Assembly: GCA_046116545.1 (NCBI GenBank)
Contig: CP175956.1
Coordinates: 77,219-141,218 of the forward strand
Length of the DNA stretch: 64,000 nucleotides
Direction: 5' to 3'
Origin: Candidatus Moraniibacteriota bacterium
Lineage (GTDB): Bacteria > Patescibacteriota > Minisyncoccia > Moranbacterales > GCA-2747515
Shown here piece after piece: positions 9,274-59,947 of the stretch (position 1 is the first letter of the stretch; each line of letters opens with the position of its first letter). Both the position numbers and the translations under genes were made by a program. A model generated the notes under the pieces. It was not told the origin of the DNA and made no database searches. It saw only the letters and a list, made by a program, of their open reading frames with translations.

Positions 9274-9490
9274 GTCTTTGCGAACAGAAGTGATGCTTAC
9301 TGTGTTATGTGAAGCAATCTCAAAAGTTTATAAATAATCTAACCGAGATTGCTTCGTCGTACCTCCTCCACCCAGGTGGTCCATCTACTACGCTTTAAAT
9401 TCAGAATAGTCGCTATACAGCTCCTTTCTTCATTTATCTTGAACAGAGTTCAATTTATTATGCCCTTGTGGTACACCTTGACGCAATGAC
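9274..9490. repeat. Palindromic element family A, long variant. It has unit I (gtctttgcgaaca...gtgaagcaatctc) and unit II (gagattgcttcgtcgtacctcctccacccaggtggtcc...), and extends to cttgaacagagttcaatt...caccttgacgcaatgac.
   Basis: Two-stem imperfect palindrome. gaagcaatctc pairs with gagattgcttc, and gtctttgcga pairs with tcgcaaagac. The sequence recurs at 12 or more further sites. Confidence 0.8.
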
Positions 9491-9571
9491 GCACTTTTTT
9501 GAGGCTTGTTTGAGAGTGTTAGGGATTACAAAATATTTAAATTCTATCATTTTCGTAAAACAAACTTTTTG

Positions 9572-9712
9572 GTAGGGACAGTGCCTTGTGCCTGTCCATT
9601 CAAATTTTAGAAATCCTTTATCCGGAATCTAAACTTTAATATTATAGTATAGATTCCGGACAGATTTATTTGTATTCTGATATCTCGGACAGGCACAAGG
9701 CACTGTCCCTAC
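9572..9712. repeat. Palindromic element family C. A 26-bp inverted-repeat pair (gtagggacagtgccttgtgcctgtcc / ggacaggcacaaggcactgtccctac) flanks about 90 bp that contain a nested palindrome (ccggaatctaaac...tagattccgg).
   Basis: The perfect 26-bp inverted repeats are read directly from the sequence. Single arms recur at 15751..15776 and, degenerate, at 45184..45241. Confidence 0.75.
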
Positions 9713-9856
9713 CAAATAATATCTTCCGGAATGGCACAGGCCTATGTTTATTTGTTAATTGAGATTGGGTGTAGTATGTAAAATTCTTGAATTCTAACCA
9801 ATTTAAAAAGACATGACTAACATCATGTCTTTTTATTAAAATTTCATTTTTGAAAT

Positions 9857-10810
9857 TTATTCTTTTTCTTCCAGCTCATCTTCATCATTATCCACATCAT
9901 CACTTTCGTCAGCGTCAGATTTATCACCTTCTAGAGCAAGCTCACCTCCGAAAGCTTCAATTAATTCTGCACGTGCAGCATCAACTGTTACTTTAAATGC
10001 ACTAATAGCATCTTTTACAGCTGCTTTCCGTACAGCAACTAATTCTTGTACTTCTGGACCAACTTGTTTCATTTCTTGTACTTCTTTACGAAATGTTGTA
10101 GCGATACCTTTTAATTCAGCATTAAGATCTTTTGCAATATTTTTCAAATCATCTGCTGTTGCATCTTCACTACACGCGCCTTCTGATGCAGCGATTGCTG
10201 TATTATACGATGCTTGATATTCACTATATGATGCTGTTACTGTAGCTTTTTTTTCTTCAACTAATGCATCTACAGCTTCTTGTAATGCCAATGTTGCAGC
10301 GTCAATTGCTTCACGACGAACTATTACAGCCTCCTCAACAGTTGCTTTAAATGTTGATACAGCAGCTATTTGCTCATCTGTTTGTGCCTTTTCTTCTAAA
10401 TTATTGTAGGATGTCTCACGCTGCCCATCTCGCTTCTGTCGTTGTTCTTGCAATTCTTTATTTTGCATAACTCGCTTGTCCTGTACCTGTACCAATCTAT
10501 CTTCAAGTTTAGATGAATTTATTTCTTCACGCTTCGCAGACCGGTCTTTAAGTCGCAAAATTGTTTTGTCAACACGTTCACATATTCTTTCAACTTTTTT
10601 TGCATCAAGTTCTTCTTTTTTATCTGCAATTGCAGCTTCACGTTCCACCTTTTTATCTTCAATTATAGTCTCACGTTCTGCTTTTTTTGCATCACGTTCT
10701 GCTATCATAGCATCTCTATCTGCTGGTGCTGCAAAAACAACACTACTAGACATTACCGTTACAATTGCTAGACCTCCAATAATTTGATATTTTTTCATAT
10801 TCTTATGCAT
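9857..10810 (-). CDS. Secreted coiled-coil protein with an acidic C-terminal tail
   Basis: Signal-peptide-like N-terminus (MKKYQIIGGLAIVTVMSSSVVFAAPA). The body is a long charged helical-repeat region. The C-terminus is DESDDVDNDEDELEEKE. Confidence 0.5.
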   Translation of the reverse strand: MHKNMKKYQIIGGLAIVTVMSSSVVFAAPADRDAMIAERDAKKAERETIIEDKKVEREAAIADKKEELDAKKVERICERVDKTILRLKDRSAKREEINSSKLEDRLVQVQDKRVMQNKELQEQRQKRDGQRETSYNNLEEKAQTDEQIAAVSTFKATVEEAVIVRREAIDAATLALQEAVDALVEEKKATVTASYSEYQASYNTAIAASEGACSEDATADDLKNIAKDLNAELKGIATTFRKEVQEMKQVGPEVQELVAVRKAAVKDAISAFKVTVDAARAELIEAFGGELALEGDKSDADESDDVDNDEDELEEKE

Positions 10811-10825
10811 ATTTTTTATATAAAT

Positions 10826-11113
10826 TTAAAATACTATAATTTCTTCATCTACAAAACCATTGACATCGTCAAAATCACTCATATCAATAACTTCTACAAA
10901 ATCAAGCTCATCCATCTCAAAATCCTCATCTGTGAGAATATTAATTTCTTTTTTTAGAATGACTGCATCTTCATCCTTTGTAATTGTTGTCTTTTTTACA
11001 ACTGTTTTTTCACTAGGAACTGCATCGTAAACAGTACTAGAATTATATAGTAAAGCTCCTCCTACGACCACAAACACAACAACTAAAATTGCAATGTAAT
11101 ATCCACTTTTCAT
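10826..11113 (-). CDS. Small membrane-anchored acidic protein
   Basis: 95 aa with an N-terminal TM helix and a D/E-rich C-terminus. Confidence 0.35.
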   Translation of the reverse strand: MKSGYYIAILVVVFVVVGGALLYNSSTVYDAVPSEKTVVKKTTITKDEDAVILKKEINILTDEDFEMDELDFVEVIDMSDFDDVNGFVDEEIIVF

Positions 11114-11170
11114 ATTTATTTTGATTTAATTATTATAACAATTTTATTATATCACAGATTTACCTTTCTA

Positions 11171-12112
11171 TCACCTAAATTTATCTTTATTTTGCAAATA
11201 AAATGGAATTGCTATTAAGCTAACTAGCATCTGTAAGACTCTCGATAAAATAACAACTGTCACTGCAGCACTAGCACTCACTCCAAATATTCCAAACAAA
11301 AATACATAAGCCCATTCTTTCACACCAATATTACCCATACTTATAGGAACAGCAGCAATTATACTTGATAAAAATATAACACTCATAAAATCTTCCACAG
11401 ATAAACAAATCCCTATCGACTTAAATAGTAAATAATTTGCGATGGCAACTCCTACAAAAGCAAATACAAAAGCATACAATAAAGACTTAGTCATTATTTC
11501 AATATTTCTAAATTTAGCAAGTTGCTTTATATATACTTGTATAAAATTTGGTAATAAATTTATAAAATACCTTATGAACCTACTGTTAAAAAATATTATA
11601 ACAATAACGAATGTAGTAATTGTAATGATCAGTCCATATACTATCCAGACTATTATTTCATGATCTATCAAAACTTTAAAATTATAAAATGCAAAAATGA
11701 TTGATAAAATCATAATACCAATAAGCCCACTAATCCTATCAACAACAATTGTTGTTGAGCTCTCACTCACTCTACCAACAGGCTTCCCTAGTGAATACGC
11801 TCTATACGTATCCCCACCAATAAAAGAAGGGAGAAAATTGTTCAAAAAAGTTCCAAGTAAATATGACTTGATGTAGAAAATAAATTTATTAGTAAATTTT
11901 TTAAATCTAGCTATAATTTGCCATTTACGAGCACTTATCACAATTCCCAAAATATAAAAAATCACAAATGCAATAATATAATAAATATTTGCACCTACTA
12001 TATATCCCCACACCTCCGTCCAATCAACATTGATTATCAATAAAAATACCAAAAAAGAAGATATGGCTATCTTCAAAAAAGTTTTACATTTACTATTATT
12101 TTTACAAATCAT
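11171..12112 (-). CDS. Polytopic membrane protein, flippase-like (UPF0104 / lysyl-PG synthase TM-domain-like)
   Basis: 313 aa with about 8 TM helices. The motif FLPSFIGGDTYRAYSLGKP is typical of this family. Confidence 0.45.
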   Translation of the reverse strand: MICKNNSKCKTFLKIAISSFLVFLLIINVDWTEVWGYIVGANIYYIIAFVIFYILGIVISARKWQIIARFKKFTNKFIFYIKSYLLGTFLNNFLPSFIGGDTYRAYSLGKPVGRVSESSTTIVVDRISGLIGIMILSIIFAFYNFKVLIDHEIIVWIVYGLIITITTFVIVIIFFNSRFIRYFINLLPNFIQVYIKQLAKFRNIEIMTKSLLYAFVFAFVGVAIANYLLFKSIGICLSVEDFMSVIFLSSIIAAVPISMGNIGVKEWAYVFLFGIFGVSASAAVTVVILSRVLQMLVSLIAIPFYLQNKDKFR

Positions 12113-12141
12113 TTTTTATTATTATGTCAGTTGTTTTACAT

Positions 12142-12229
12142 GAGATTGCTTCGTCGTACCTCCTCGCAAAGACGATATCTAGTCATTGCGAACAGAACCA
12201 AAATCATCTGTGACCTGTGAAGCAATCTC
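12142..12229. repeat. Palindromic element family A (unit II then unit I, opposite order to 9274)
   Basis: gagattgcttcgtcgtacctcctcgcaaagac ... gtcattgcgaacagaacc...gtgaagcaatctc. Confidence 0.8.
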
Positions 12230-12236
12230 GATCATT

Positions 12237-12539
12237 TTATCCATTTTCTATCATTTTACCATATAAATCAACCCACTCAATATTACTATTTTCAATCAAT
12301 GCAATTTTATTTTTACGCGAACCACTTTTTATTTGTTTTTCTCTAGAAATTGCAGACTCAATTGATGGACATACTTCATAATGTACTAACTTATGCAAAT
12401 TATATCTTTGAGTAAATCCCCTTACAATATTATTTTTGTGTTCCCAAATTCGTTTTTGCAAATTAGTAGTAACTCCAACGTACAAAGTACCATCTTTTTT
12501 ATTCGTTAAAATATACACGCACGAAATTTTTTCATTCAT
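12237..12539 (-). CDS. GIY-YIG domain nuclease family protein (UPF0213-like)
   Basis: Motifs VYILTNKKDGTLYVGVTTNLQKRIWEHK and RPW-like. It is flanked on both sides by family-A repeats. Confidence 0.75.
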   Translation of the reverse strand: MNEKISCVYILTNKKDGTLYVGVTTNLQKRIWEHKNNIVRGFTQRYNLHKLVHYEVCPSIESAISREKQIKSGSRKNKIALIENSNIEWVDLYGKMIENG

Positions 12540-12575
12540 AATTTTGTCATATAATAAATCTCATGTCTTCATCTC

Positions 12576-12680
12576 GTCTTTGCGAGCAACTGTGACTTTT
12601 ATTATGTCTAGCGAAGCAATCTCCACCAGGTTTATTAATATACTCACTAAGATTGCTTCGTCGTACCTCCTCGCAATGAC
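12576..12680. repeat. Palindromic element family A. Its unit II overlaps the 3' end and supplies the stop codon of the GT4 gene.
   Basis: gtctttgcgagcaactgtgac...gcgaagcaatctc / ctaagattgcttcgtcgtacctcctcgcaatgac. On the minus strand, unit II reads ...V S L R G G T T K Q S stop. Confidence 0.8.
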
Positions 12681-13831
12681 ACATTATTATATAGCTCAAC
12701 ATACTCATTTGCCACATTTTCCCAGTTCATTGTCTCCGCTATCAATCTACTTGCATGTCCCATACCATCACATATTTCTGGATTTTCTATTAATATTTTT
12801 AATTTTTCTACGATTGACTGTACATCATTCATTTTTATGAGATAACCATTTTCTCCATTTCTCACAAGCTCCTCCGCTCCACCTGTTGGTGTCATGAGCA
12901 CTGGAAGACCTGATGCCAATGCTTCTAATAAATTATTACTCATTCCTTCATTTAACGATGGCATCACAAATACATCCGCACTATTATAGATACCTGCAGA
13001 TTCTTCCTTTGTATACAATCCACTAAATGTTACTCGTCCATCTAATCTATATTTTTTCACCTGAGCTTTTAACTCTTCCATTGCATTTCCCTCTCCCCCA
13101 GCTATTTGCATTTTGATATGAGGATACATATCAAATAATTCCACAAAAGCATCTATCGCATAATTAAATCCCTTTCGCCTTGATATTCTAGAAGCTAACA
13201 AAATTTTAAATTCTTTTTTTCTATCTTCAACTGTCCTGCTGCTACTACTATAAAAATCTGTATCCACTCCATTAAATATTTGTACAAATTCTTGTTCTGG
13301 CATAGTACTACTAGCAAGCTCTGTAAGACCTTTACTATTTGTTACAACATAATGTGCATCTTTCCATACTTTGTGAATTGTTGGTGTAATGATTTTATAT
13401 AATTTTTTAAATCTTTCACTGTAACCTGGCACATCAGCACCTCGCAGAGATACAATATATGGAATACCATATTTCTTTTTTAATCTTCTTGATATCACAC
13501 CACTAGGCACAGCAAAAAAACTATGCGTCAAATCATAATCATTTCTAGCAATTAATTTTTTGGCAAATTGATATGCCCTAAACGTGTACTTCAATAATTC
13601 TCCTTTTGTTTGATAATTTAAATTATTTGCACTTTTGCCTATTGGAAGTCTATGTATTATTATATTTTCCCCAACTCTCTCTTGCACGTATTCATCTATA
13701 ATTGAAGATGTAACAAGATCAACAAAAACATCATCTCGACGAGAATACTCATCCAAGATGTATTTTGTAGCATTTGCAGCACCACCTCCAAGTGGAGGAT
13801 ATTCATAATTAAAAAATAATACTCTTTTCAT
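12647..13831 (-). CDS. GT4-family (GT-B fold) glycosyltransferase. Its C-terminal 10 aa and stop codon are encoded by a family-A repeat.
   Basis: N-terminal motif FFNYEYPPLGGGAANA, and a C-terminal domain with an E-x7-E-like segment (FVMPSLNEGMSNNLLEALASGLPVL). It ends ...SLRGGTTKQS. Confidence 0.8.
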   Translation of the reverse strand: MKRVLFFNYEYPPLGGGAANATKYILDEYSRRDDVFVDLVTSSIIDEYVQERVGENIIIHRLPIGKSANNLNYQTKGELLKYTFRAYQFAKKLIARNDYDLTHSFFAVPSGVISRRLKKKYGIPYIVSLRGADVPGYSERFKKLYKIITPTIHKVWKDAHYVVTNSKGLTELASSTMPEQEFVQIFNGVDTDFYSSSSRTVEDRKKEFKILLASRISRRKGFNYAIDAFVELFDMYPHIKMQIAGGEGNAMEELKAQVKKYRLDGRVTFSGLYTKEESAGIYNSADVFVMPSLNEGMSNNLLEALASGLPVLMTPTGGAEELVRNGENGYLIKMNDVQSIVEKLKILIENPEICDGMGHASRLIAETMNWENVANEYVELYNNVSLRGGTTKQS

Positions 13832-13858
13832 ACATACAATTATACAACAAAAGAAAAA

Positions 13859-13886
13859 ATACTGGAAACATTTGTGTTTCCAGTAT
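13859..13886 (-). terminator. Hairpin followed by a T-run on the minus strand, downstream of ugd
   Basis: atactggaaaca-tttgt-gtttccagtat, then TTTTTCTTTT on the transcribed (minus) strand. Confidence 0.55.
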
Positions 13887-13897
13887 TTTATTTTATT

Positions 13898-15211
13898 CTA
13901 AAGTTGACCGTGGCCAACATATTTAAATCCTGCCTCCTCCATCTTTTTTGTCCTATACACATTTCTAAAATCAACAAATGCTGGATCTTCATTCATAAGA
14001 TCTTTCAATCTATTTAAATCCAATGCACGAAATTGATTCCATTCAGTCATTAGAACAATACAATCAGCTCCATCGGCCGCATTATACGCATCTGTCGCAT
14101 AATAAGTTTCCTCTGGCAATGAGCTGCGAGCTTCATTCATACCTTTTGGATCATAGACTCTAACTATCGCACCTTTCTCAGCAAGTGTATTAACAATCAA
14201 CACTGCTGCAGAGGCCCGAGTATCATCTGTTTCTGGCTTAAATGTTAAACCTAAAACAGTGATTGTTTTTCCTGCTACATCACCGTCAACAATACTTTTG
14301 ATTTTTTTGATCATTGATGCTTTTTGAGCACTATTTGCCTCAACAGTTGCACTAACAATACGCAAATTACTACCATATTCCTGAGCAATTCGCAAAAGCG
14401 CTAACGTATCTTTGGGAAAGCAAGAGCCGCCATAGCCTGGACCAGGATGTAAAAATTTATCACCAATTCTCCCATCCATGCCCATACCTTTGGCAAGTTT
14501 TAGCACATCAGCACCAACACATTCACAAAGATTAGCCATCTCATTAATAAAGCTAATTTTCATTGCTAAAAAAGCGTTTGATGCATACTTGATTAGCTCT
14601 GCCGTCTCCAAAGTAGTTTCTAAAATTGGTGCCTCTCTGATATACAACGGCTCATAAACATCACACATAATATCAAATGCTTCTTTAGTTTCAGCACCAA
14701 TAACAATCCTGTCTGGCCTCATGAAATCATCAATAGCCGCACCCTCTCGCAAAAATTCTGGATTAGATACCATGTCAAAGTTTGCATTTGGATTTGTGCT
14801 ACTGATTATTCGCTTAACCTGCATTGCCGTCCCTGCTGGAACTGTACTTTTGTTAACTATGACAGTGTAATCCCTGAGATGCGGTGCTATATTCTTAGCT
14901 GCCGCATGTACATAAGACAAATCAGCATATCCATCTCCACGACGACTTGTGGGAGTGCCTACTGCTATAAATATAACATCAGCACCCAGAACTGCCTCTT
15001 CTAATTCAGTCGTGAAAATCAAGCTTTTACCTGCAGAAACTTTGGAAATCAAGACTTCTAACCCTGGCTCATAAATCGGAACTCCTCCACCCTTGAGAAG
15101 TGCCACCCTGTCTTCATCAATATCCACACATGTAACATAATGACCAAGATCAGCAAAACATGCCCCAGTAACAAGTCCAACATAACCAGCGCCTATCATT
15201 GTAATATTCAT
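13898..15211 (-). CDS. ugd: UDP-glucose 6-dehydrogenase
   Basis: N-terminal NAD fold IGAGYVGLVTGACFADLGH, catalytic-cysteine motif GGSCFPKD, and the family's C-terminal domain. Confidence 0.9.
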   Translation of the reverse strand: MNITMIGAGYVGLVTGACFADLGHYVTCVDIDEDRVALLKGGGVPIYEPGLEVLISKVSAGKSLIFTTELEEAVLGADVIFIAVGTPTSRRGDGYADLSYVHAAAKNIAPHLRDYTVIVNKSTVPAGTAMQVKRIISSTNPNANFDMVSNPEFLREGAAIDDFMRPDRIVIGAETKEAFDIMCDVYEPLYIREAPILETTLETAELIKYASNAFLAMKISFINEMANLCECVGADVLKLAKGMGMDGRIGDKFLHPGPGYGGSCFPKDTLALLRIAQEYGSNLRIVSATVEANSAQKASMIKKIKSIVDGDVAGKTITVLGLTFKPETDDTRASAAVLIVNTLAEKGAIVRVYDPKGMNEARSSLPEETYYATDAYNAADGADCIVLMTEWNQFRALDLNRLKDLMNEDPAFVDFRNVYRTKKMEEAGFKYVGHGQL

Positions 15212-15377
15212 TTTCTACTTTCTCCTTTTTTAAATTGAATAGTTACACTTTTAATAAATGCTAACTGTATAATTAAAGAACACATCTCAAAATAAAGATG
15301 TGTCAAAAGTATAACAAAATAGGGAAACTCGTCAATGAAAAATAATCATATATAACTCCGTTCCTTTCTGTGTTTAT

Positions 15378-15543
15378 GTCATTGCGAACAGAGCCCACAT
15401 CATTTGTAACATGTGAAGCAATCTCATTACAATATCTATGTCTTTGCGAACAGAGCCCATGTTCATTATGACATGTGAAGCAATCTCATTGGGTTTATTA
15501 GTTCACTTACTGAGATTGCTTCGTCGTACCTCCTCGCAAAGAC
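15378..15543. repeat. Palindromic element family A. Two tandem unit-I copies are followed by unit II.
   Basis: gtcattgcgaacagagcccacatcatttgtaacatgtgaagcaatctc, then gtctttgcgaacagagcccatgttcattatgacatgtgaagcaatctc, then gagattgcttcgtcgtacctcctcgcaaagac. Confidence 0.8.
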
Positions 15544-15590
15544 GATAGCCTGTGGATAAACTTGAACAGTTATAGAATTATATCCAACCA

Positions 15591-15632
15591 AAACCACCCC
15601 TCAGTCCCCTCCTTAAAAAGGAGGGGAGGTAA
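15591..15632. repeat. Hairpin element family B, part 1 (accacccctcagtcccctccttaaaaaggaggggagg)
   Basis: Near-identical copies lie at 41471..41510 and 45381..45420. A variant lies at 19851..19880. Confidence 0.7.
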
Positions 15633-15635
15633 AAA

Positions 15636-15672
15636 CTAAACTAAACTAAACTAAACTAAACTAAACTAAACA
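15636..15672. repeat. Pentanucleotide microsatellite (ctaaa), about 7 copies
   Basis: Direct tandem ctaaactaaactaaa..., read from the sequence. Confidence 0.85.
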
Positions 15673-15750
15673 GAATAAAACAGAACTAAGCTAAACATAC
15701 ATCATACGCTCCTACAGACTTGTCATTCCAGAAAATATTATTTGTATCCT

Positions 15751-15776
15751 GTAGGGACAGTGCCTTGTGCCTGTCC
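15751..15776. repeat. Family C arm, single copy
   Basis: gtagggacagtgccttgtgcctgtcc, identical to the 9572 arm. Confidence 0.7.
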
Positions 15777-15850
15777 GAGATATTACTTTACAAATAAATT
15801 CATCAGGAATTTACACTATACGATTATTTCAAATCTTTAGTAACATTCAA

Positions 15851-15905
15851 GCCTCTCCCCTTTTTTAAAGGGGGAGATGTCCTAAGGACAGAGGGGGTTC
15901 CACGC
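15851..15905. repeat. Hairpin element family B, part 2 (ctctcccctttttt aaagggggagatgtcctaaggacagagggggtt)
   Basis: Copies lie at 19931..19980 and 41373..41420. Confidence 0.7.
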
Positions 15906-15981
15906 CAACAACTAATAATAAAAAAAGCTACTGTACCTTTTAAAGATACAGTAACTTCAACAAATACAATAACTGATTATT

Positions 15982-16929
15982 CTATAGTTCTACAACATTC
16001 TTAACAGTATAATTCATTCTTTTCTGACCTTTATAATAATTTTTCATTACAATATCTGCAAGAAGTCCAAACACAAAGAACTGTACTCCCAACATTATGA
16101 AAAATGTACCCATAAGTGGCCAGATTCGCTCTGACAATGCAGCGTCAAAAAATACTTTCTCAACACTCATCCATGCAAGAATTGTCATGCCAAAAAATAT
16201 AAACACCATGCCTCCTCCGCCAAAGAAATGTAATGGTCTTGAAGCATACTTACGCCAAAACCAGATTGATATCATATCAACAAACCCCTTCACTGAACGT
16301 TTCCAATTATATTTAGTAACACCCGCAACTCTAGCGTGATGAGAAACCTTCACCTCTCCCACTGTATATCCATCTAATTCTAAAATAGCCGGTATAAAAC
16401 GATGCATTTCTCCAAACAAATCAATTCCTCGAAGTGCATCACCATCATACACCTTTAAACTACAACCAGAATCATGTATAGAATCTTTCAATAATAATTT
16501 TCGAAGCTTGTCAGCTGTTCTAGAAAAGAATTTTTTTGAAAAAGAATCTTTTCTATCAAATCTCCAGCCTGATACAATATCATACCCTTCAGCCTTTTTT
16601 TCTAGTAACTTTCCTATGTCAGCAGGATCATTTTGCAAATCACCATCCATCGTAACAATTACATCACCTACAGATGCCTTGAAGCCAGCATCAAACGCAG
16701 CTGTCTGACCAAAGTTCTTACGCAATTCAATCAATGTTAAATTAGATAAAGACTTACAAATTTCAACAGTCTTATCACAAGAACCATCATCCACAAAAAT
16801 AACCTCGTATGATTTATTCAATCCATCACATGCTTCAACAATTTTCCTGTGTAATTCTGCAACATTTCCTTCCTCATTATAAACAGGAACTACAACTGAT
16901 AACTGTACCTTTTTTTCTGAATTTTCCAT
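15982..16929 (-). CDS. GT2 polyprenol-phosphate glycosyltransferase (DPM1/ArnC/GtrB-like) with C-terminal TM helices
   Basis: Motifs VVVPVYNEEGNV, FVDDGS and MDGDLQND (DxD), plus two C-terminal TM helices. This is the expected partner enzyme for GT-C transferases. Confidence 0.85.
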   Translation of the reverse strand: MENSEKKVQLSVVVPVYNEEGNVAELHRKIVEACDGLNKSYEVIFVDDGSCDKTVEICKSLSNLTLIELRKNFGQTAAFDAGFKASVGDVIVTMDGDLQNDPADIGKLLEKKAEGYDIVSGWRFDRKDSFSKKFFSRTADKLRKLLLKDSIHDSGCSLKVYDGDALRGIDLFGEMHRFIPAILELDGYTVGEVKVSHHARVAGVTKYNWKRSVKGFVDMISIWFWRKYASRPLHFFGGGGMVFIFFGMTILAWMSVEKVFFDAALSERIWPLMGTFFIMLGVQFFVFGLLADIVMKNYYKGQKRMNYTVKNVVEL

Positions 16930-17043
16930 TCTAGCTTTTTTAATTTCTTAAATTCTTAACTAAATACTAACATACCAAATACACAGATTCAACTCTAAGT
17001 TGTATAAGTGCTCCCAAATTTCAGTCTTTGCGAGCAACTGTGC

Positions 17044-17186
17044 CATTTCATACGTCCTGCGAAGCAATCTCGTCAAAATATTTATGTCATTGCGAACAGA
17101 AACCACATCATTTGTAACATGTGAAGCAATCTCCGTAGGTTTATTAATGCACCCACTAAGATTGCTTCGTCGTACCTCCTCGCAAA
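17044..17186. repeat. Palindromic element family A. Two unit-I variants are followed by unit II.
   Basis: gtctttgcgagcaactgtgccatttcatacgtcctgcgaagcaatctc ... gtcattgcgaacagaaaccacatcatttgtaacatgtgaagcaatctc ... ctaagattgcttcgtcgtacctcctcgcaaaaac. Confidence 0.8.
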
Positions 17187-17238
17187 AACAAAATACTTTA
17201 TTGCCTCTCCTTGTAAAGACGTTGTTTTTTAAATGTTT

Positions 17239-18216
17239 TTATTTGTTATCTTCCTTGCTCTTCTTTCCAAAAATATGCTTTGCTGCAAAATATAGAAACC
17301 ATGCGCCAACTGCAAATATAATTATAAATGGAAGTGATGTTATCGTAAATCTTATAACAATATTTAGTAGGTTAGTTGCTTTTTTGATAAGTGTATTAAA
17401 CGAATCTGTCACAACTTGCATTGGTCGCCAAGAATCAGAAACTACAATACTTGAATCTTCTCTCAAAGATACATTAATTGTTGAATATTGTGTTTGATCT
17501 TTTAAATATTTCAACTGTCCTTCCATACTCTCAACTTCTGTACGCACCCGAGCAAGTTCACGCTCAACCTGTATTAGCTCATCTACATCATCAGCTTTTT
17601 TGAAAAAACTTCTCAATCTTTCTTCATGTTCTTTTTTGTTTTTTATACGAGATTCCAAATCTATAAATCGAGCTGTTACATCTTGTGATTGTGATGATTC
17701 ATCAATTACAAGCGGAGCAATTCTTTTAATAGCTGCAAAAGTTTCTGCATATTGATTTACTGGCACCTTCACTACTATAAAACCATTTTTATAAGTATCA
17801 CTTTTTGATATATCAGACGACACCTCATCTCCACCATGTGCGTTTGTAATCCATCTAATTTCATCCATGGAATCCTCAACTGAATTAACTCTCATATCTA
17901 TTGAACCTGTTTTGATAACTTTTTTGTCGACTGCAACTTCGCCACCAACATTGTCAGCCGTCACTACCGTTGTTGTTTGACTATTTCTTGCTTTAACTTC
18001 TGGCGCCACAGGACTTTCCATCATTGGCTCCATCATGTCCACCGGCATAACATCCCCCATAGGCATTCCAACAACACTTTCCATACCACCACCATAGCCC
18101 ACATCAGACATTGTTTTATTTGAAGTTCTATTTGACAAAAACACTATCAAAAGTGCAAATGCAACAAAAATTATAATATAAATTACAATTCTTTTTTTAC
18201 CAGGTTTTTCCGACAT
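17239..18216 (-). CDS. DUF4349-like membrane protein (N-terminal TM, central coiled coil, C-terminal TM)
   Basis: The architecture and a segment (RFIDLESRIKNKKEHEERL...ELARVRTEVESMEGQLKYLKDQ) resemble DUF4349. Confidence 0.4.
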   Translation of the reverse strand: MSEKPGKKRIVIYIIIFVAFALLIVFLSNRTSNKTMSDVGYGGGMESVVGMPMGDVMPVDMMEPMMESPVAPEVKARNSQTTTVVTADNVGGEVAVDKKVIKTGSIDMRVNSVEDSMDEIRWITNAHGGDEVSSDISKSDTYKNGFIVVKVPVNQYAETFAAIKRIAPLVIDESSQSQDVTARFIDLESRIKNKKEHEERLRSFFKKADDVDELIQVERELARVRTEVESMEGQLKYLKDQTQYSTINVSLREDSSIVVSDSWRPMQVVTDSFNTLIKKATNLLNIVIRFTITSLPFIIIFAVGAWFLYFAAKHIFGKKSKEDNK

Positions 18217-18333: not shown

Positions 18334-19842
18334 TTGATATACTGTTTATATATTCACATTGAAATAAATACTAAAATGTTACATAAAAAAAATATTACAA
18401 TTGCAAATTCAACAATATTCTTAACTATCCTGTGCTTATTATTTTTTGGCATGACTAAATTTTCTTTTGCTGCTGAGTGGCGCTATGAGGGGGTTGCCTA
18501 TTATGTACCAACCTCATCAAGTAATAACCTTCCTATATATCGATTTTATTCTCCGAAAAATAAATCTCATTTCTTTACAAAGTCAAAATCAGAAAAAGAT
18601 GCTATTATCAAAAAATATCCTACAACAGAGTGGAGATATGAAGGAGTTGCCTATTATGTGCCAAAGTCCTCAACAGGAAACCAGGCTGTTTATCGATTTT
18701 ATTCTCCTAGCAAAAAAACACATTTCTTTACAAAATCAAAATCAGAAAAAGATGCTATTATCAAAAAATATCCCACAACAGAGTGGCGATATGAAGGAGT
18801 CGCATATTATGTGCCAATAACTTCTACTAACAATAAACCTGTATATCGATTTTACAATACTATAAACAAGGCACATTTTTTTACAGCCTCAGAAAGTGAA
18901 AAGATTAGGTTAACTGCTAGTATTTATGGACCGTATATTTCTATTGGACTTCATGAATATTCACGTAGCACACTAAAAGACTCTGCATTCAAAATTGACT
19001 CAAAAAAAGATTATCTCATCAAAGACAAAAATGGTACAACAATTGCAAAAATTAAGGCTGGTGTACAAACAAAAGTTAAATATGATTCTGATGGAAATTT
19101 AAAAATATATAATTCCATATCAGAAAAAAAAGTTAATAAAGAGGTTAGATTTGAAGCAGCTGATGGAAACAATAGTGGTATGATATTTGATATACACAAA
19201 CCAGAATCTGATTTTGATGAATACCGTGGCAAAACAAAACTACGTTATAGTGATACAAGCAAAAATATTTGGGTTATCAATGAATTACCATTGGAATATT
19301 ATATTTGGGGTATGGGTGAAATCACTGGAACAGGTCCAATGGAATATAATAAAATGATGACCACAGCATATCGTACATATGGTTATTGGAAAATCCTCTA
19401 TTCCACCAAGTATGCTACTGAAGGATTTAAAGTAAATGCAACGCCTGGTAATCAAATTTATTATGGTTATGAATGGGAAAAAAGGTATCCTCGTATTAGA
19501 GAAGGAGCTGAATCAACACGTGGGAAAATTGCAAAACATGGTGATGATGTGGCATTAACTCCTTACTCAAGCTGGACTGATGGCAAGACACGTAGTTTTG
19601 AAGAACATTGGGGATCAACACTATATCCATGGTGTCAGTCTGTATCAGACCCTTATGGTGATTATAATGGTGACTATTGGGACAATTCATATAAAAGTAC
19701 ATCCGACCTTGTAGCAAGTGGCAATCATATGGTAGGTATCAGTGCACATGGAGCACTAACACTAGCAAATGATAAAAATTGGAATTGGGACAGAATTATG
19801 AAATACTATTTAGATGGAATTAATATTGTTTCAATTTATTAA
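18334..19842 (+). CDS. Secreted SpoIID/LytB-domain protein with three N-terminal 42-aa tandem repeats
   Basis: Signal peptide, then three copies of EWRYEGVAYYVP...PVYRFYSP.NK.HFFT.S.SEK. The C-terminal domain has SpoIID-like motifs INELPLEYYIWGMGEI...AYRTYGYW and YPWCQSVSDP. Confidence 0.65.
   Translation: MIYCLYIHIEINTKMLHKKNITIANSTIFLTILCLLFFGMTKFSFAAEWRYEGVAYYVPTSSSNNLPIYRFYSPKNKSHFFTKSKSEKDAIIKKYPTTEWRYEGVAYYVPKSSTGNQAVYRFYSPSKKTHFFTKSKSEKDAIIKKYPTTEWRYEGVAYYVPITSTNNKPVYRFYNTINKAHFFTASESEKIRLTASIYGPYISIGLHEYSRSTLKDSAFKIDSKKDYLIKDKNGTTIAKIKAGVQTKVKYDSDGNLKIYNSISEKKVNKEVRFEAADGNNSGMIFDIHKPESDFDEYRGKTKLRYSDTSKNIWVINELPLEYYIWGMGEITGTGPMEYNKMMTTAYRTYGYWKILYSTKYATEGFKVNATPGNQIYYGYEWEKRYPRIREGAESTRGKIAKHGDDVALTPYSSWTDGKTRSFEEHWGSTLYPWCQSVSDPYGDYNGDYWDNSYKSTSDLVASGNHMVGISAHGALTLANDKNWNWDRIMKYYLDGINIVSIY
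18475..18860 (+). repeat. Three 126-bp (42-aa) tandem coding repeats
   Basis: Periodicity is visible in the DNA and in the protein. The alternate-frame ORF 18467..18820 is an artefact of this periodicity. Confidence 0.8.
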
Positions 19843-19850
19843 TAACCACC

Positions 19851-19980
19851 ACTCAATCACCTCCTTTAAAAGGAGGTGAGATAAAAACTAAACTAAACAG
19901 AATTAAAGTTAAGTTAAATTAATCATACTATCCTCTCCCCTTTTTAAGGGGGAGATGTCCGAAGGACAGAGGGGGTTTTG
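19851..19980. repeat. Hairpin element family B (part 1 variant + ctaaa x2 + part 2)
   Basis: tcacctcctttaaaaggaggtga ... ctctcccctttttaagggggagatgtccgaaggacagagggggtt. Confidence 0.7.
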
Positions 19981-20604: not shown

Positions 20605-22467
20605 ATGAGAAACATCAAAAATATATATCTAATAATACTTGCATTATTTTTAATAGCATTTCCCACAGTAATTCATGCACAATCAAAATTGCCATCAATC
20701 CCCATACAATCAATCGCAGCTGAAAAAAACTATGTTGAAGGTGAAGTAATTGTAAAATATAAAATAAATACAAAAAAACAACAATTACTAAAAACATCTA
20801 CAGAAAAAAATGAATCACCAAGACTACTGCAATCTCTACAGGAAACACAATCCATGCATGATCTAAAAATAAAAAATACATTCAAAAATTTAAATATCAC
20901 AACATTACAATCAGATATACAATCAACCCAAGATTTAATAACTAAACTAGAACAAGATCCTGAAGTGGAATATGCGGAACCTAACTACAGAAAATATCCT
21001 ACATCAATACCAAATGATACTTATTTCAAAAGTACACAATGGGCACTATACAATACAGGACAGGAACTTTGTACACCTGACTGCACTACAGGAACAATCG
21101 ATGATGATATTGACGCAACAAATGCTTGGGATATAGAGATTAGTGCTGCCCAAAAAATAACCGTTGCAGTAATAGACAGTGGCTTAAATTATAATCACGA
21201 AGATTTATTACAAAATTTATGGAATGGTGCTAGTTGTGTAAATGAAAATGGAACAACTATACATGGTGGTTGTCCATATCATGGATGGGATTACGCCGAT
21301 AATGACAATAATCCTGCTGATACTACTGGAAGTGCGCAAGGACATGGAACAAGCGTTTCAAGTATATTTGGTGCAACAACAAATAATTCAAAAGGACTTG
21401 CAGGCATCAGTCTATATGGCAATGTAAAGGTTATGGCACTTCGATTTGATTTGGATACAATCTCTGAAATAAAAGCTATTGAATTTGCAAAAAATAATGG
21501 TGTCAAAATTATAAATGCAAGTTTTGCAGGAGATGCCTATTCACAATCAGAAAAAGATGCTATTGATGCATTTCCTGGAATATTTATAACAGCATCTGGC
21601 AACGGTGGCATTGATGGCTTACGTGATAACAATGACGTTACACCGCAATATCCATGTAATTATTCATCAAGTAATATAATATGTGTAGGTGCATCTGATC
21701 AAAATGATAATCTTGCTAGTTTTTCAAATTATGGACAAACAAGCGTTGATTTAGTGGCTCCTGGAGTAAATATATTAATTGCTTGTGATAATGTCTACTG
21801 TACTGGTGATGGTACTTCATTTTCTACACCCTACGTAACAGGTGTTGCTGCAATCTTGTCTAGCCACAATACAAAATTGTCTACATCACAAGTGAAAAGT
21901 TTAATACTTGATAATGTCGATAATGTTGGACTATCAACACAGATAAAAACGGGAGGTCGTCTTAATATGTATAAATCTCTTTACGATTTGAAAACTAGTT
22001 ACGGATATTCATACTCCACAAAACCAGTTTACAGATTCTATTCACCAAGCAATAAAGCACATTTCTTTACTGTATCCGAAACTGAAAAGAATCATATTGT
22101 TGCAACTTACCCAACCACTGAATGGCGATATGAAAATATTGCTTATTATGTACCAACAACATCTACTGGCAATAAGCCTGTGTATAGATTCTATTCACCA
22201 CGCAACAAAGCTCATTTTTTCACTGTATCAGAAACTGAAAAGAATCATATTGTTGCAACTTACCCAACCACTGAATGGCGATATGAAAATATTGCTTATT
22301 ATGTACCAACAACATCTACTGGCAATAAGCCTGTATATCGATTTTATTCTCCACGTAACAAAGCACATTTCTTTACTGTATCAGAAAGTGAAAAGAATCA
22401 TATTGTTGCAACTTACCCAACCACTGAATGGCGATATGAAAATATTGCTTATTATGTACCAAAATAA
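20605..22467 (+). CDS. Secreted subtilisin-like serine protease (peptidase S8) with three C-terminal 42-aa tandem repeats
   Basis: Signal peptide. Catalytic triad motifs VAVIDSG (Asp), HGTSVSS (His) and GTSFSTPYVTGVAA (Ser). The C-terminus has three near-identical repeats PVYRFYSPRNKAHFFTVSETEKNHIVATYPTTEWRYENIAYYVP. Confidence 0.85.
   Translation: MRNIKNIYLIILALFLIAFPTVIHAQSKLPSIPIQSIAAEKNYVEGEVIVKYKINTKKQQLLKTSTEKNESPRLLQSLQETQSMHDLKIKNTFKNLNITTLQSDIQSTQDLITKLEQDPEVEYAEPNYRKYPTSIPNDTYFKSTQWALYNTGQELCTPDCTTGTIDDDIDATNAWDIEISAAQKITVAVIDSGLNYNHEDLLQNLWNGASCVNENGTTIHGGCPYHGWDYADNDNNPADTTGSAQGHGTSVSSIFGATTNNSKGLAGISLYGNVKVMALRFDLDTISEIKAIEFAKNNGVKIINASFAGDAYSQSEKDAIDAFPGIFITASGNGGIDGLRDNNDVTPQYPCNYSSSNIICVGASDQNDNLASFSNYGQTSVDLVAPGVNILIACDNVYCTGDGTSFSTPYVTGVAAILSSHNTKLSTSQVKSLILDNVDNVGLSTQIKTGGRLNMYKSLYDLKTSYGYSYSTKPVYRFYSPSNKAHFFTVSETEKNHIVATYPTTEWRYENIAYYVPTTSTGNKPVYRFYSPRNKAHFFTVSETEKNHIVATYPTTEWRYENIAYYVPTTSTGNKPVYRFYSPRNKAHFFTVSESEKNHIVATYPTTEWRYENIAYYVPK
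22018..22464 (+). repeat. Three near-identical 126-bp tandem coding repeats
   Basis: The copies differ at only a few nucleotides. The alternate-frame ORF 22097..22525 is an artefact. Confidence 0.85.
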
Positions 22468-22540
22468 AATAATACCTACCAACTCATCGCCATTGCTAGG
22501 AAGTACAACGAAGCAATCTCAATAATAAACTCCAGCATTC

Positions 22541-23539: not shown

Positions 23540-23622
23540 AATTTTCCTATCATATTACCTGTCTTTGCGAGGAGCGTTTAGCGACGTGGCAATCTCGACA
23601 ATAATACCACTAAACTCTCTAA

Positions 23623-24820: not shown

Positions 24821-24926
24821 CGAAGCAATCTCAAAAAGAACACTCCTCTGTCTTTGCGTCAAGGTGAATTGAGCTCTGCTCAAGAGAGGGACCACCTGGG
24901 TGGAGGAGGTACGACGAAGCAATCTC
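24821..24926. repeat. Palindromic element family A, long variant (intergenic)
   Basis: cgaagcaatctc ... gtctttgcgtcaaggtgaattgagctctgctcaagagagggaccacctgggtggaggaggtacgacgaagcaatctc. ORF 24854..25048 is a read-through of this element. Confidence 0.8.
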
Positions 24927-34283: not shown

Positions 34284-34294
34284 TACTCAAACTA

Positions 34295-34320
34295 GATTCC
34301 CGCCTACGCGGGAATGACAC
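34295..34320. repeat. Family-D hairpin (gattcccgcctacgcgggaatgaca) in the 3' intergenic spacer
   Basis: Short palindrome ending in ggaatgaca. Terminator-like position downstream of cysC. Confidence 0.55.
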
Positions 34321-41370: not shown

Positions 41371-41512
41371 ACCTTCTCCCCTTTTTAAAAGGGAAGATGT
41401 CCGATAGGACAGAGAGGGGTTTGTTATAGTAGCTTTTTAATCTTTGTATTATTTAGTTCTTATTTTTACCAAAACCACCCCTCAGTCCCCTCCTTAAAAA
41501 GAAGGGGAGGCT
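41371..41512. repeat. Hairpin element family B (part 2 then part 1)
   Basis: ccttctcccctttttaaaagggaagatgtccgataggacagagaggggtt ... accacccctcagtcccctccttaaaaagaaggggagg. Confidence 0.7.
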
Positions 41513-45273: not shown

Positions 45274-45321
45274 GAGATTGCTTCACATATCACAAATAAT
45301 GTCACTTCAGTTCGCAAAGAC
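45274..45321. repeat. Palindromic element family A, unit I in reverse orientation
   Basis: gagattgcttcacatatcacaaataatgtcacttcagttcgcaaagac. Confidence 0.75.
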
Positions 45322-45380
45322 GCTACACAAATGATACTGATTTTTCATTTAAAATTTGTTTTATACTTACGTTATATACA

Positions 45381-45420
45381 AAAACACCTCTCAGTCCCCT
45401 CCTTAAAAAGGATGGGAGGT
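45381..45420. repeat. Hairpin element family B, part 1
   Basis: aaaacacctctcagtcccctccttaaaaaggatgggagg. Confidence 0.7.
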
Positions 45421-45482: not shown

Positions 45483-45508
45483 GATTCCTGCCTTCGCAGG
45501 AATGACAT
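45483..45508. repeat. Family-D hairpin immediately downstream of the GT gene (terminator-like)
   Basis: gattcctgccttcgcaggaatgaca. Confidence 0.6.
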
Positions 45509-45514
45509 TGATTT

Positions 45515-46714
45515 TTATTTTAACTTACTTTTTAAATACTCATAATATTCCGCATTCTTTGTATTTTGTGTTGTATATTCTTTTATTGTTTTTTGATATG
45601 CTTTTTGTCCCATTTTGATTCTTAGATCTTTATTTTCTATTAACTGTGCTAGTTTGTCTGTCCATTCTTCTGAGTTTTTTGCTGTGAATCCATCCACTCC
45701 ATCTTCAATAGCATCTTGATATGTTTGATTGTCTATTGCTATTGTTGGAACTTTTACTATTCCTGCCTCAAAAAACTTTAATTCTGACTTTGCTTCACAA
45801 AATGGATTATTATATTCTAATGGCGCAAGATTAATATCACATTGTGCTATATTTGCAAAATGTTTACTACGCTTCACGTAGGGTAATTGTTTAATTCTAT
45901 CTCCAAACTTTTTCACTAAATCATTTTCAACATCCAATGGACCGACTAATAATAACTCTACATTTTTATACTTTTCCATTATTGTCATCAATGGTTCTGT
46001 GATTGTTGCAAAATCTTTGTTGTGGCTTATTGTTCCACTGAAGTAGCCTAGTTTTACTATATCCTCTCGAGATTGCTTCGTCGTCGTACCTCCTCCTCGC
46101 AATGACAATAAAGCTTTTTTTGCACCATCAATATCTTTTTTTGATAATTTATTTTGTACTATGAAAACTTCTTTATTTTCTTGTCTTAATTTGTTTGCAA
46201 GAAATTTTGTGGTTGTGGTTGCGACTTTCACATATTCATCTTTTAATATTTCTCCACCCACTCCATTTTCATAAAGCTTCTTTTCCAGACTATTCATTTT
46301 TTTATAATAATCCATATGTTCTAAATATTTTGGATCATATACCAAATCATCTGTTTCAAAAATGATTATCTTATTTTGTTTTTTTATTTCTTCTACTAGC
46401 TTTGCTATTTTTTTTGTATTTAAAGTTCTATGAAAAATAAATATTGAAAATTTATTTACATAACTAACTAGTCTTGGATTATCTTGTACTGTAACTGAGC
46501 ATTTGAATCCATTAAATTCTAATTCTTCGGCTATATGAGTTGTCCTGTGTAACGCACTATCACCTACTCCACCTGAAATAAATAAAATGTCTCCACTGCC
46601 AACCTTGCGAAATAATGCAAAGAACGCACTTAAAACACGTTTTGAACCATTGATGAGTCCATCTCGTTTTATTACTTGCCACGACTTTCCTATTTTAATT
46701 AAGAATGTATTCAT
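45515..46714 (-). CDS. GT-B fold glycosyltransferase (GT1/GT4-like) with an in-frame family-A insertion in the inter-domain linker
   Basis: C-terminal Rossmann domain with an E-x7-E-like segment (CEAKSELKFFEAGIVKVPTIA). Linker contains LSLRGGGTTTKQSRED. Confidence 0.55.
   Translation of the reverse strand: MNTFLIKIGKSWQVIKRDGLINGSKRVLSAFFALFRKVGSGDILFISGGVGDSALHRTTHIAEELEFNGFKCSVTVQDNPRLVSYVNKFSIFIFHRTLNTKKIAKLVEEIKKQNKIIIFETDDLVYDPKYLEHMDYYKKMNSLEKKLYENGVGGEILKDEYVKVATTTTKFLANKLRQENKEVFIVQNKLSKKDIDGAKKALLSLRGGGTTTKQSREDIVKLGYFSGTISHNKDFATITEPLMTIMEKYKNVELLLVGPLDVENDLVKKFGDRIKQLPYVKRSKHFANIAQCDINLAPLEYNNPFCEAKSELKFFEAGIVKVPTIAIDNQTYQDAIEDGVDGFTAKNSEEWTDKLAQLIENKDLRIKMGQKAYQKTIKEYTTQNTKNAEYYEYLKSKLK
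46068..46106. repeat. Palindromic element family A, unit II, with internal triplet duplications, inserted in-frame
   Basis: gagattgcttcgtcgtcgtacctcctcctcgcaatgac. The tcg and cct triplets are duplicated relative to the canonical unit. Confidence 0.85.
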
Positions 46715-54130: not shown

Positions 54131-54132
54131 AC

Positions 54133-57859: not shown

Positions 57860-57931
57860 TTATCGCTTATCTGCCACAGTTCCATGAACTAAGGAAGATT
57901 TTTTATTTTATTAATTTTTTTAGAACAATCT

Positions 57932-58957: not shown

Positions 58958-59070
58958 ATTTTATATATTTTTATATTTATTTCATTATATCACATTATAT
59001 TTACAATCACACGTTATTGTGCTAATTTACACTAAACTTCAATATTTACATAAATAAAGGAGGGGCTATA

Positions 59071-59421
59071 ATGGAGTTTTATTTATTTTATGATCGTCCA
59101 CAGCGACTGATTAGTGATGCAAAGATGATTCCAAATGGAATATTTTCAATCTATACAGCATTTAATCCAGAAAGTCTGATTTGTTTTGATGGTTTATTTT
59201 TAACCATCCACGCAACTGATTCATCACCTGCCGTGATACAATGCACACTTCTGGAAGAAACACCTCGTATATTAGATATTGAGTTGGATGAAACCACCTT
59301 ACAAACTTTTGATGAATTGATAGCTAATGAAGACTATCTACCAGCAACATTATCAGAGAAAATATCAAATATAGTAAAGAGTAGTGCGATGGATTTTGGT
59401 TCTCAACTTGTAACAAACTAG
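59071..59421 (+). CDS. Hypothetical protein
   Basis: 116-aa ORF with a strong RBS (aaggagg) 8 nt upstream of the ATG. Confidence 0.4.
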   Translation: MEFYLFYDRPQRLISDAKMIPNGIFSIYTAFNPESLICFDGLFLTIHATDSSPAVIQCTLLEETPRILDIELDETTLQTFDELIANEDYLPATLSEKISNIVKSSAMDFGSQLVTN

Positions 59422-59483
59422 GATATTTATTAAAATTTTATTAATAAATATCAAATCAACCACCTTAACAATAGGACTCTAAG

Positions 59484-59723
59484 ATGGAAAAGAAAGATTT
59501 AAAAATCATCAAAGAAAAACTCGAAACTGAATGGCCTGGAGAATCAGTGTATTTCTTTGATAGCAAGGACAATCCAAATAATGACGGTCACCGGACTATT
59601 GAATTATGGTCTCGACGACATGCAAGTCTTTCATCTGAACTATTTCGCTGTATTATATGTGAGCTTAATCATTCACATTCAACATGTCCAGAATGTGGAA
59701 TGACTGCAACGCAGGATGAGTGA
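59484..59723 (+). CDS. Small protein with a C-terminal Cys4/His zinc-ribbon-like motif
   Basis: CIICELNHSHSTCPECG. Followed by a hairpin terminator. Confidence 0.35.
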   Translation: MEKKDLKIIKEKLETEWPGESVYFFDSKDNPNNDGHRTIELWSRRHASLSSELFRCIICELNHSHSTCPECGMTATQDE

Positions 59724-59768
59724 GATTCCGTTGATTAACCTGGTTATCGTTTTTCCCACCACAAAACA

Positions 59769-59810
59769 AAAGGCACCTCACAAATGTGAAGTGCCTTTTT
59801 CTTTTTGAAT
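59769..59810 (+). terminator. Rho-independent terminator
   Basis: aaaggcacctcacaaatgtgaagtgcc, then tttttcttttt. Confidence 0.6.
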
Positions 59811-59827
59811 TTATACTAATATACTAC

Positions 59828-59947
59828 GTCTTTGCGAGCATTGCCATAACATATGTAATAAGCGAAGCAATCTCGTTTAATTTTTTAATATTCTAATTGA
59901 GATTACTTCGCCTTGTGGTAATAAATATCCCAATTGCTCGCAAAGAC
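59828..59947. repeat. Palindromic element family A, complete unit I + loop + unit II
   Basis: gtctttgcgagcattgccataacatatgtaataagcgaagcaatctc ... gagattacttcgccttgtggtaataaatatcccaattgctcgcaaagac. Confidence 0.8.

Follow-up and report, generated by a model that had tools for sequence, protein, structure and literature searches.

A GTCAT-headed repeat family in a Moraniibacteriota genome that brackets a gene for an Ssn-family GIY-YIG nuclease and lies in frame within unrelated genes

The repeats described here, which we call family A, lie in a stretch of 64,000 nt from a Candidatus Moraniibacteriota bacterium of the candidate phyla radiation (CPR) (assembly GCA_046116545.1, contig CP175956.1, positions 77,219 to 141,218; hereafter the window), where they occur both between genes and in frame within them, and where they bracket a small gene, ssn, for a GIY-YIG nuclease. 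The closest described system is that of SsnA of Neisseria meningitidis, a 94-aa single-domain GIY-YIG nuclease acting on single-stranded DNA (ssDNA) (Chenal et al. 2025, Nat Commun 16:2388, PMC11893778). SsnA binds the hairpin repeat NTS (CGTCATTCCCGCGMAVGCGGGAATCYRG) as ssDNA only and cuts one strand just upstream of the repeat; the ssnA gene is itself flanked by NTS, and thousands of its homologs are flanked by 'Ssn-related motifs' (SRMs) (PMC11893778). Genomes for which more than 300 SRMs are listed there include those of Rickettsia and Wolbachia, but the Rickettsia palindromic elements (RPEs) go unmentioned in that work (PMC11893778). RPE-4, -6 and -7, together with the Wolbachia palindromic elements (WPEs), carry the hallmark ATGAC and sit in frame in open reading frames (ORFs), as described in the R. 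japonica genome paper (PMC3767692); in-frame RPE insertions are summarised in a review of MITEs, or miniature inverted-repeat transposable elements (PMC10969869).

The original prediction, drawn from the letters of the window, knew of no described equivalent of these repeats. However, the units bracket a gene of the Ssn family and fit the Ssn/SRM system of PMC11893778. The window protein is likewise a single-domain GIY-YIG protein of about 100 aa (94 aa for SsnA), its gene is bracketed by oriented repeats starting with GTCAT, the genome has many more copies, both scattered and in clusters, protein and repeat vary together, and NTS-like units close to the consensus (family B) occur in the window as well. 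The differences lie in the short outer stem of family A, its GAG...CGAA shoulder and its long variable interior, in the fact that single units do not fold, in the host, a CPR bacterium, a group that PMC11893778 does not mention, and in the coding share, with 4 of 22 family A units and one family B unit in genes against 2% of NTS in N. meningitidis. We consider it likely that family A is a local, AT-rich version of a bacteria-wide repeat class bounded by GTCATTGCGAG and CGAAGCAATCTC, of the SRM type and with its own Ssn partner, that its spread depends on the nuclease, and that its coding copies are insertions that survived. The Ssn/SRM system of 2025 would thereby be extended to CPR bacteria and to a repeat class missed by the published pattern.

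The likeness to Rickettsia palindromic elements that had been proposed for the repeats was apt. Like RPEs and WPEs, which are palindromic repeats lying in frame in unrelated genes at exposed or permissive sites, where they add a conserved peptide (PMC10969869, PMC3767692), family A is found both between genes and in frame in unrelated ORFs at permissive sites, and ATGAC is the reverse complement of the GTCAT head of its units, a shared hallmark that may point to kinship. RPEs are longer (100-150 bp), encode other peptide families, belong to another host phylum and have no assigned enzyme in PMC3767692 or PMC10969869. The repetitive extragenic palindromes (REPs), with their bacterial interspersed mosaic elements (BIMEs) and their hairpin-forming doublets (REPINs), are also short oriented repeats, solitary or paired as inverted doublets. 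They lie around the gene of a single-strand-specific nuclease that recognises them, the REP-associated tyrosine transposase (RAYT), and their copies far outnumber that gene. But the partner there is a Y1 (HUH) transposase and not a GIY-YIG protein, family A units lack the GTAG head of REPs, and REPs are essentially extragenic whereas family A units are also found in coding DNA. Bacterial MITEs that create in-frame fusions, such as ERIC and BOX, resemble family A in being small and non-autonomous and in that host ORFs can run through them; for family A, in contrast, neither a target-site duplication nor a parent insertion sequence was found, and the termini are conserved across phyla.

Family A and the nuclease gene it brackets

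Repeat finding and a scan for both ends define a family A unit as running from GTCWTTGCGA (L end) to GAAGCAATCTC (R end), with a variable interior. The window holds 22 units or fragments at 15 sites, and the repeat family first noticed, with at least 13 claimed copies, is real. GAGATTGCTTCG with at most one mismatch was observed 21 times for 0.15 expected, and CTCGCAAAGAC 14 times for 0.27 expected, and no shuffled sequence reached either count. Each of the blocks first located holds at least one unit, but the unit starting at 17024 had been placed at 17044 and the one at 12576-12623 had not been listed; the GIY-YIG gene between the units had also been overlooked. The units and the gene are as follows, with the evidence in brackets.

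9274-9321, + strand: 48-nt unit, left half of a doublet (end scan, repeat finding)
9345-9490, - strand: 146-nt unit, long variant with a further internal insertion (end scan)
12142-12173, - strand: 32-nt unit, tail-to-tail with 12182-12229 (end scan, folding)
12182-12229, + strand: 48-nt unit, 7 nt past the ssn stop codon and inverted relative to the gene, the usual downstream position (same layout in metagenomic ssn loci)
12237-12539, - strand: ssn, intact gene for a 100-aa single-domain GIY-YIG nuclease, likely protein partner of family A (Pfam PF01541)
12576-12623, + strand: 48-nt unit, 36 nt upstream of ssn, inverted doublet with 12649-12680 (doublet z = -4.15)
12649-12680, - strand: 32-nt unit upstream of ssn and co-directional with it, supplying the last 11 codons of GT4 (VSLRGGTTKQS) and its stop (end scan, GT4 homology end)
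15378-15425, + strand: 48-nt unit (end scan)
15440-15487, + strand: 48-nt unit, left half of a doublet (doublet z = -6.0)
15512-15543, - strand: 32-nt unit, right half of a doublet (end scan, folding)
17024-17071, + strand: 48-nt unit (end scan)
17086-17133, + strand: 48-nt unit, left half of a doublet (end scan, folding)
17158-17189, - strand: 32-nt unit, right half of a doublet, one mismatch in each end (L GTTTTTGCGA, R GAAGCAATCTT) (end scan)
22489-22520, + strand: degenerate 32-nt relic (motif search, inverted-repeat pairing)
23561-23596, + strand: variant unit GTCTTTGCGAGGAGCGTTTAGCGACGTGGCAATCTC (motif search, end scan)
24821-24832, + strand: fragment, R end only (motif search, end scan)
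24850-24926, + strand: 77-nt long unit, intergenic (inverted-repeat pairing, end scan)
36177-36253, - strand: 77-nt long unit in frame in the N-terminal leader of Wzt, aa 22-48 ASLRQGELNSVQERDHLGGEGTTKQSQ (comparison of relatives' N-termini)
42141-42172, - strand: 32-nt unit that keeps the frame of a hydrolase-like protein of 1051 aa, within its acidic low-complexity tail at aa 973-984 (sequence only)
45274-45321, - strand: 48-nt unit, intergenic (inverted-repeat pairing, end scan)
46069-46106, - strand: 38-nt unit (the 32-nt form expanded by the triplets GGA and CGA) in frame at aa 203-216, where a linker joins the two glycosyltransferase domains (relatives' alignment)
59828-59874, + strand: 47-nt unit, left half of a doublet (doublet z = -6.25)
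59899-59947, - strand: 49-nt unit, right half of a doublet (end scan, folding)

The units thus fall into classes of 32, 38, 47-49, 77 and 146 nt, with relics at 22489, 23561 and 24821. Units of the 77-nt class consist of the 32-nt form plus a nested insert of 45 nt, in which there are two small hairpins. Family A has an outer stem of 5 bp, ATTGC/GCAAT, and the conserved shoulder GAG...CGAA around a long and variable interior, which in this AT-rich genome (GC content of about 32%) is unstructured. Five doublets have a common spacer sequence (mean column identity of 71%), and doublets were therefore copied as wholes. In one of the hairpins of the nested insert we noticed a compensatory change between the intergenic copy (24866-24885, TTGAGC...GCTCAA) and the coding one (36218-36237, TTGAAC...GTTCAA).

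The protein encoded by ssn matches PF01541 over residues 7-79 (E 1.3e-17) and has no second domain, and the GIY-YIG residues Y9, Y20, R30, H34, E67 and N86 are invariant in an alignment of 26 homologs. As the gonococcal counterpart of SsnA we took, from an N. gonorrhoeae record in the plasmid collection, a 94-aa ORF whose stop codon is directly followed by an NTS and which has a further NTS, inverted, on its upstream side. The window protein aligns with it without gaps over 92 aa at 48% identity (BLASTP, E 2e-34), and tblastn against the same record gave E 8e-24, to be compared with the E < 1e-10 to SsnA by which homologs are defined in PMC11893778. Searches of NCBIfam and PDB returned generic matches only, namely TIGR01453 below its cut-off and the UPF0213 structure 1zg2.

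The ssn gene is flanked on both sides, by the units 12576-12623 and 12649-12680 upstream and by 12182-12229 and 12142-12173 downstream, which conforms to the usual layout of unit, gene and inverted unit. This layout is not particular to the window. Scanning metagenome contigs with the alignment of Ssn homologs gave 80 loci, and a GTC-stem unit lies at most 200 nt from the gene in 69 of them and on both sides in 43, typically with one unit 40-80 nt upstream and an inverted one 4-25 nt past the stop codon. The density of units in these loci is 4.95 per kb near ssn and 0.42 per kb farther off. A Pacebacteria genome has a 66%-identical homolog; 50 nt upstream of it lies a GTCATTGCGAG... unit, and its stop codon is overlapped by an inverted ...CTCGCAATGAC unit. 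In a metagenome contig of higher GC content, a 72%-identical homolog stands amid GTCATTCTGAG...GAAGAATCC and GTCATCCTGAG...GAAGGATCC units, whose stem bases are changed in a compensatory manner; and the same arrangement of units and gene is found in a Planctomycetota genome.

Two repeat classes dominate at the metagenomic ssn loci, class A (GTCATTGCGAG...CGAAGCAATC) and class B (GTCATTCCNGCGAAAGCNGGAAT). Nearest-neighbour Ssn proteins carry the same class of flanking repeat in 86% of cases, for 50% after permutation, and none of 2000 permutations gave a value as high. Such a tracking of repeat class by Ssn subclade is what co-evolving pairs of nuclease and site would produce, and each pair may be a sequence-specific cutter of ssDNA and is a candidate tool. 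Otherwise, the region of the window around family A consists of cell-envelope glycan genes, and no tRNA was found in the window.

Copies in frame within genes

The four family A units that lie within genes do so in one orientation and one frame and encode the peptide xSLRGGTTKQSx, so the in-frame position that had been proposed for all four was borne out. Together with the family B unit in a fifth gene, a copy that the original inventory had not included, coding copies amount to 5 of the 26 units and fragments of both families. The proposed lengths, on the other hand, have to be corrected. They had been given as 30 and 84 nt, both multiples of three, whereas the units measure 32 and 77 nt and only their difference of 45 nt is such a multiple. 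None of the six reading frames of the 32-nt unit contains a stop codon, and three of those of the 77-nt unit are open.

The coding copies had also been described as sitting in permissive places, and comparison with relatives bears this out for the linker, the leader and the GT4 C-terminus. For the glycosyltransferase linker, 120 relatives were aligned (121 sequences with the query). The modal linker is 27-30 aa long, most relatives lack SLRGGTTKQS, and insertion-free relatives, to which the original prediction looked, do exist. The closest relatives, P0121 and P0125, have the same SLRGGTTKQS, and another, P0122, carries the 77-nt variant at exactly the same position of the DNA. Linkers of at least 36 aa occur in 32 of the 121 sequences, and many of these are plainly repeat-derived. 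Furthermore, in two other CPR lineages the linker contains in-frame inverted doublets of other GTCAT classes, and on one of these two contigs the same kind of doublet is also found between genes.

Close relatives of Wzt share a start of about 10 residues, MxKNNQQSNK, and the N-terminus of the ABC domain, IAVKVxNVSK, with differing repeat-derived segments between them, while distant relatives start about 5 residues before IAIKV. This comparison indicates that the leader is read through and that it is a hotspot of insertion. Judged by these alignments, the glycosyltransferase linker and the Wzt leader are both recurrent insertion sites, and repeat classes that differ between lineages have come to lie in frame at these same protein sites. 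For GT4, 150 representative homologs match the query up to residues ~379-388 and themselves terminate within a few more residues; this end of homology (~383) is exactly where the family A unit begins. The hydrolase copy reads as an in-frame insertion in an acidic low-complexity tail.

Linker and leader sites in other CPR genomes (P0164, P0173, P0196, P0242, P0245 and others) hold peptides of quite different repeats, such as IQNSKFKIQNS, MKHVTCNMKQ, SPLPKGEG and RDAINRVST. The many repeat families accepted at these sites therefore extend beyond those with a GTCAT head.

Other phyla, too, have coding copies of the family A class. A GMP synthase from a metagenome-assembled genome of Gammaproteobacteria (L034, 4073-5743) has an in-frame inverted doublet of the family A type (VIARPRSGAAIS...EIASEGAPRNDD) inside its glutamine amidotransferase domain. 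An HsdS subunit has a single unit between its two specificity domains, and further coding copies occur in a PD-(D/E)XK nuclease and a TrwB-like protein. The same repeat yields recurring spurious peptides (VIARS..TKQS, EIAS..ARND) in many phyla, which matters for annotation and for repeat-aware gene calling.

It could be argued that SLRGGTTKQS is an ancestral peptide motif and that nothing was inserted, given that it is also present in the closest glycosyltransferase relatives. However, most relatives lack it and have a linker of the modal length, the coding copies match intergenic copies at the DNA level, and the four host proteins are mutually unrelated. The comparisons of the glycosyltransferase linker, the Wzt leader and GT4 with their relatives refute this explanation, to which we assign practically no weight.

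Distribution across phyla, mode of spread and rival explanations

That the repeats are peculiar to the lineage of the window is not supported. An exact scan for GAGATTGCTTC-N(11-41)-TCGCAAWGAC, with each species represented by a single genome, gave at least 120 loci and, among the matches listed, loci with identical termini come from Chloroflexota, Bacteroidota, Planctomycetota, Cyanobacteria, Gammaproteobacteria and Deltaproteobacteria, Omnitrophota, Nitrospirae, Atribacterota, Elusimicrobiota, Patescibacteria and others. Since the same termini are found across so many phyla, family A is not lineage-specific. At least 149 units in those loci have invariant ends, and their interiors are either small hairpins in which the paired bases vary from unit to unit or of the GAGGAGCGNAGCGACGAAG type. 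The outer stem is present in the minimum-energy fold of 100 of the 134 distinct units of other phyla, and the interior is significantly stable in 25%. A likely enzyme can now be assigned to this very common repeat.

How could the units have spread? By analogy with the Neisseria and Wolbachia enzymes, we infer that the window Ssn would recognise the conserved unit ends in ssDNA and place a nick in one strand, a few bases 5' of GTC. Units and whole inverted doublets would then multiply by a nuclease-dependent route, through ssDNA or through repair and gene conversion, in a REP/REPIN-like manner and presumably not by classical cut-and-paste transposition. We favour such a route over transposition because no direct repeats that could be target-site duplications were found flanking units or doublets in the window, because the gene is flanked by inverted units, because doublets are copied whole and because variants at orthologous sites differ. 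The coding copies would be the survivors of insertions, translated as part of their hosts, since the hydrophilic frame SLRGGTTKQS is probably tolerated in termini, linkers and low-complexity tails. With a unit free of stop codons and a peptide thus tolerated, the same permissive sites would be hit or retained repeatedly in related genomes.

Several observations weigh against the Ssn/SRM interpretation. Single family A units fold as ssDNA no better than shuffled sequences (z +0.5 to +0.9), whereas NTS is a strong hairpin. This also disposes of the earlier description of the element as a two-stem palindrome, as single units are not palindromic and only the inverted doublets fold as ssDNA (z -2.5 to -6.3). 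In addition, no family A unit matches the published SRM pattern, HGTCWYN(0-2)YYVSBRHN(0-5)WNVSBRGN(0-2)RNCYNB, whose sole match in the window is the family B unit 34292-34319. This pattern is a search device built from 29 genomes, and the failure of family A to match it argues for a divergent class and not against membership in the Ssn/SRM system. Among the 120 unit-bearing genome loci listed, only 2 have an ssn gene within the ~8 kb covered, which is by itself no enrichment; the figure is expected, and uninformative, if units far outnumber ssn genes, and in one of the two (L029) units directly flank ssn on both sides. Finally, SsnA modulates transformation in Neisseria, which has been read as a host function and not as that of a mobile element (PMC11893778).

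This last point is the basis of a rival that we regard as rather unlikely, in which the Ssn/repeat pair is a domesticated host system, for instance one that restricts or shapes incoming ssDNA as proposed for Neisseria, the repeats are immobile, and the coding copies are old, fixed and spread by recombination only. The insertions shared with the ~80%-identical relatives P0121 and P0125 show that some coding copies are indeed old, and units cluster in the cell-surface glycan region much as NTS repeats lie near surface genes. But close and distant relatives differ in the variant (38 or 77 nt) and in the repeat class found at orthologous sites, a pattern suggestive of turnover or of repeated insertion, and the doublets of the window are still alike. 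A RAYT, that is a tyrosine transposase of the IS200/IS605 type, could instead serve the repeats as REPs or REPINs, the adjoining GIY-YIG gene being incidental. The inverted doublets do resemble REPINs and BIMEs and fold strongly as single strands; this origin is nevertheless highly improbable, as none of the 44 window ORFs scanned (of 64 ORFs of at least 100 aa) has a transposase, RAYT or Y1 domain, the units have no GTAG head, the bracketed gene encodes a GIY-YIG protein here and in 69 of the 80 relatives, and Ssn subclade tracks repeat class.

Doublets of ~104-120 bp that have terminal inverted repeats (GTCTTTGCGA...TCGCAAAGAC) and whose internal spacer is common to them could also pass for ordinary MITEs from a lineage-specific insertion sequence, moved by a DDE transposase. 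We find this improbable given the lack of target-site duplications around units and doublets and of a transposase gene in the ORFs scanned; identical termini in unrelated phyla do not fit a lineage-specific origin either, and single units and variable interiors are common. It is very improbable that the units are RNA elements, whether terminators, stabilisers or small RNAs. Many copies do lie just downstream of genes, where doublets could form RNA hairpins, but family A has no Rfam match, either over the whole window at gathering thresholds or over 9200-17300 at E up to 1; its units lack a T-tract and went undetected in a terminator scan; and they occur in both orientations relative to the neighbouring genes, some of them inside ORFs.

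A wider extension of the Ssn/SRM interpretation is possible, but we hold it only tentatively and think it more doubtful than probable: Ssn nucleases and GTCAT-headed repeats would form one selfish system across bacteria that is still active, and RPE-4, -6 and -7, the WPEs and the CPR repeats would be the same phenomenon, spread by Ssn. By analogy of hallmark and of in-frame position, these RPEs and the SRMs may be of common ancestry, so that the Ssn repeats may be one kind of element with the long-unexplained palindromes that lie in the coding DNA of Rickettsia and Wolbachia, a link that can be tested. If this were true, small genomes such as those of CPR bacteria would repeatedly gain in-frame peptide insertions from the system, at permissive protein sites.

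Family B and other repeats of the window

The second, NTS-like family, which had been overlooked in the original prediction, has four units in the window.

33836-33859, - strand: family B unit in frame in an inositol-monophosphatase/CysQ-like gene (33483-34283), encoding CHSYEGRNL (ORF reading)
34292-34319, - strand: family B unit TGTCATTCCCGCGTAGGCGGGAATCTAG, the only site of the window that matches the published SRM pattern (folds with z = -5.6)
45483-45506, - strand: family B unit, intergenic (inverted-repeat pairing)
62375-62398, + strand: family B unit, intergenic, almost the same, 3' flank included, as the unit lying upstream of ssn in locus L184 (locus comparison, folding)

Family B folds as ssDNA with z -5.5. 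When the inositol-monophosphatase/CysQ-like protein was aligned to solved structures, its family B insertion was not clearly delimited. The locus L184 (SWBW01008490.1, 5001-5279) holds a second ssn, 55% identical to that of the window and flanked by family B units that nearly match the copy at 62375. Its contig, with a GC content of 32%, also bears a 32-nt unit of family A, and it comes from a metagenome assembly that also carries the glycosyltransferase gene of the window. This suggests two nuclease-repeat pairs within one genome.

Two further repeat families of the window are unrelated to family A. The family CCCTCAGTCCCCTCCTTAAAAAGGAGGGGAGG is intergenic at 15589-15630, 19841-19882, 41470-41511 and 45379-45420, and CTCCCCTTTTTTAAAGGGGGAGATGTCC...GGACAGAGGGGGTT, also intergenic, at 15855-15899, 19933-19977 and 41376-41420; the two lie close together at three sites. 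The palindromic repeat GGACAGGCACAAGGCACTGTCCCTACC forms a 39-nt inverted pair (9559-9597 and 9687-9725), and the segment 9637-9712 has a related copy 6 kb away at 15751-15826. Tandem coding repeats of 153 nt, at 18389-18994, 22034-22486 and 37232-37690, are common to three secreted-enzyme genes, where they fall in the stretches that match DUF5648 in the encoded proteins, namely a SpoIID-like protein, a subtilase and a GH114 protein.

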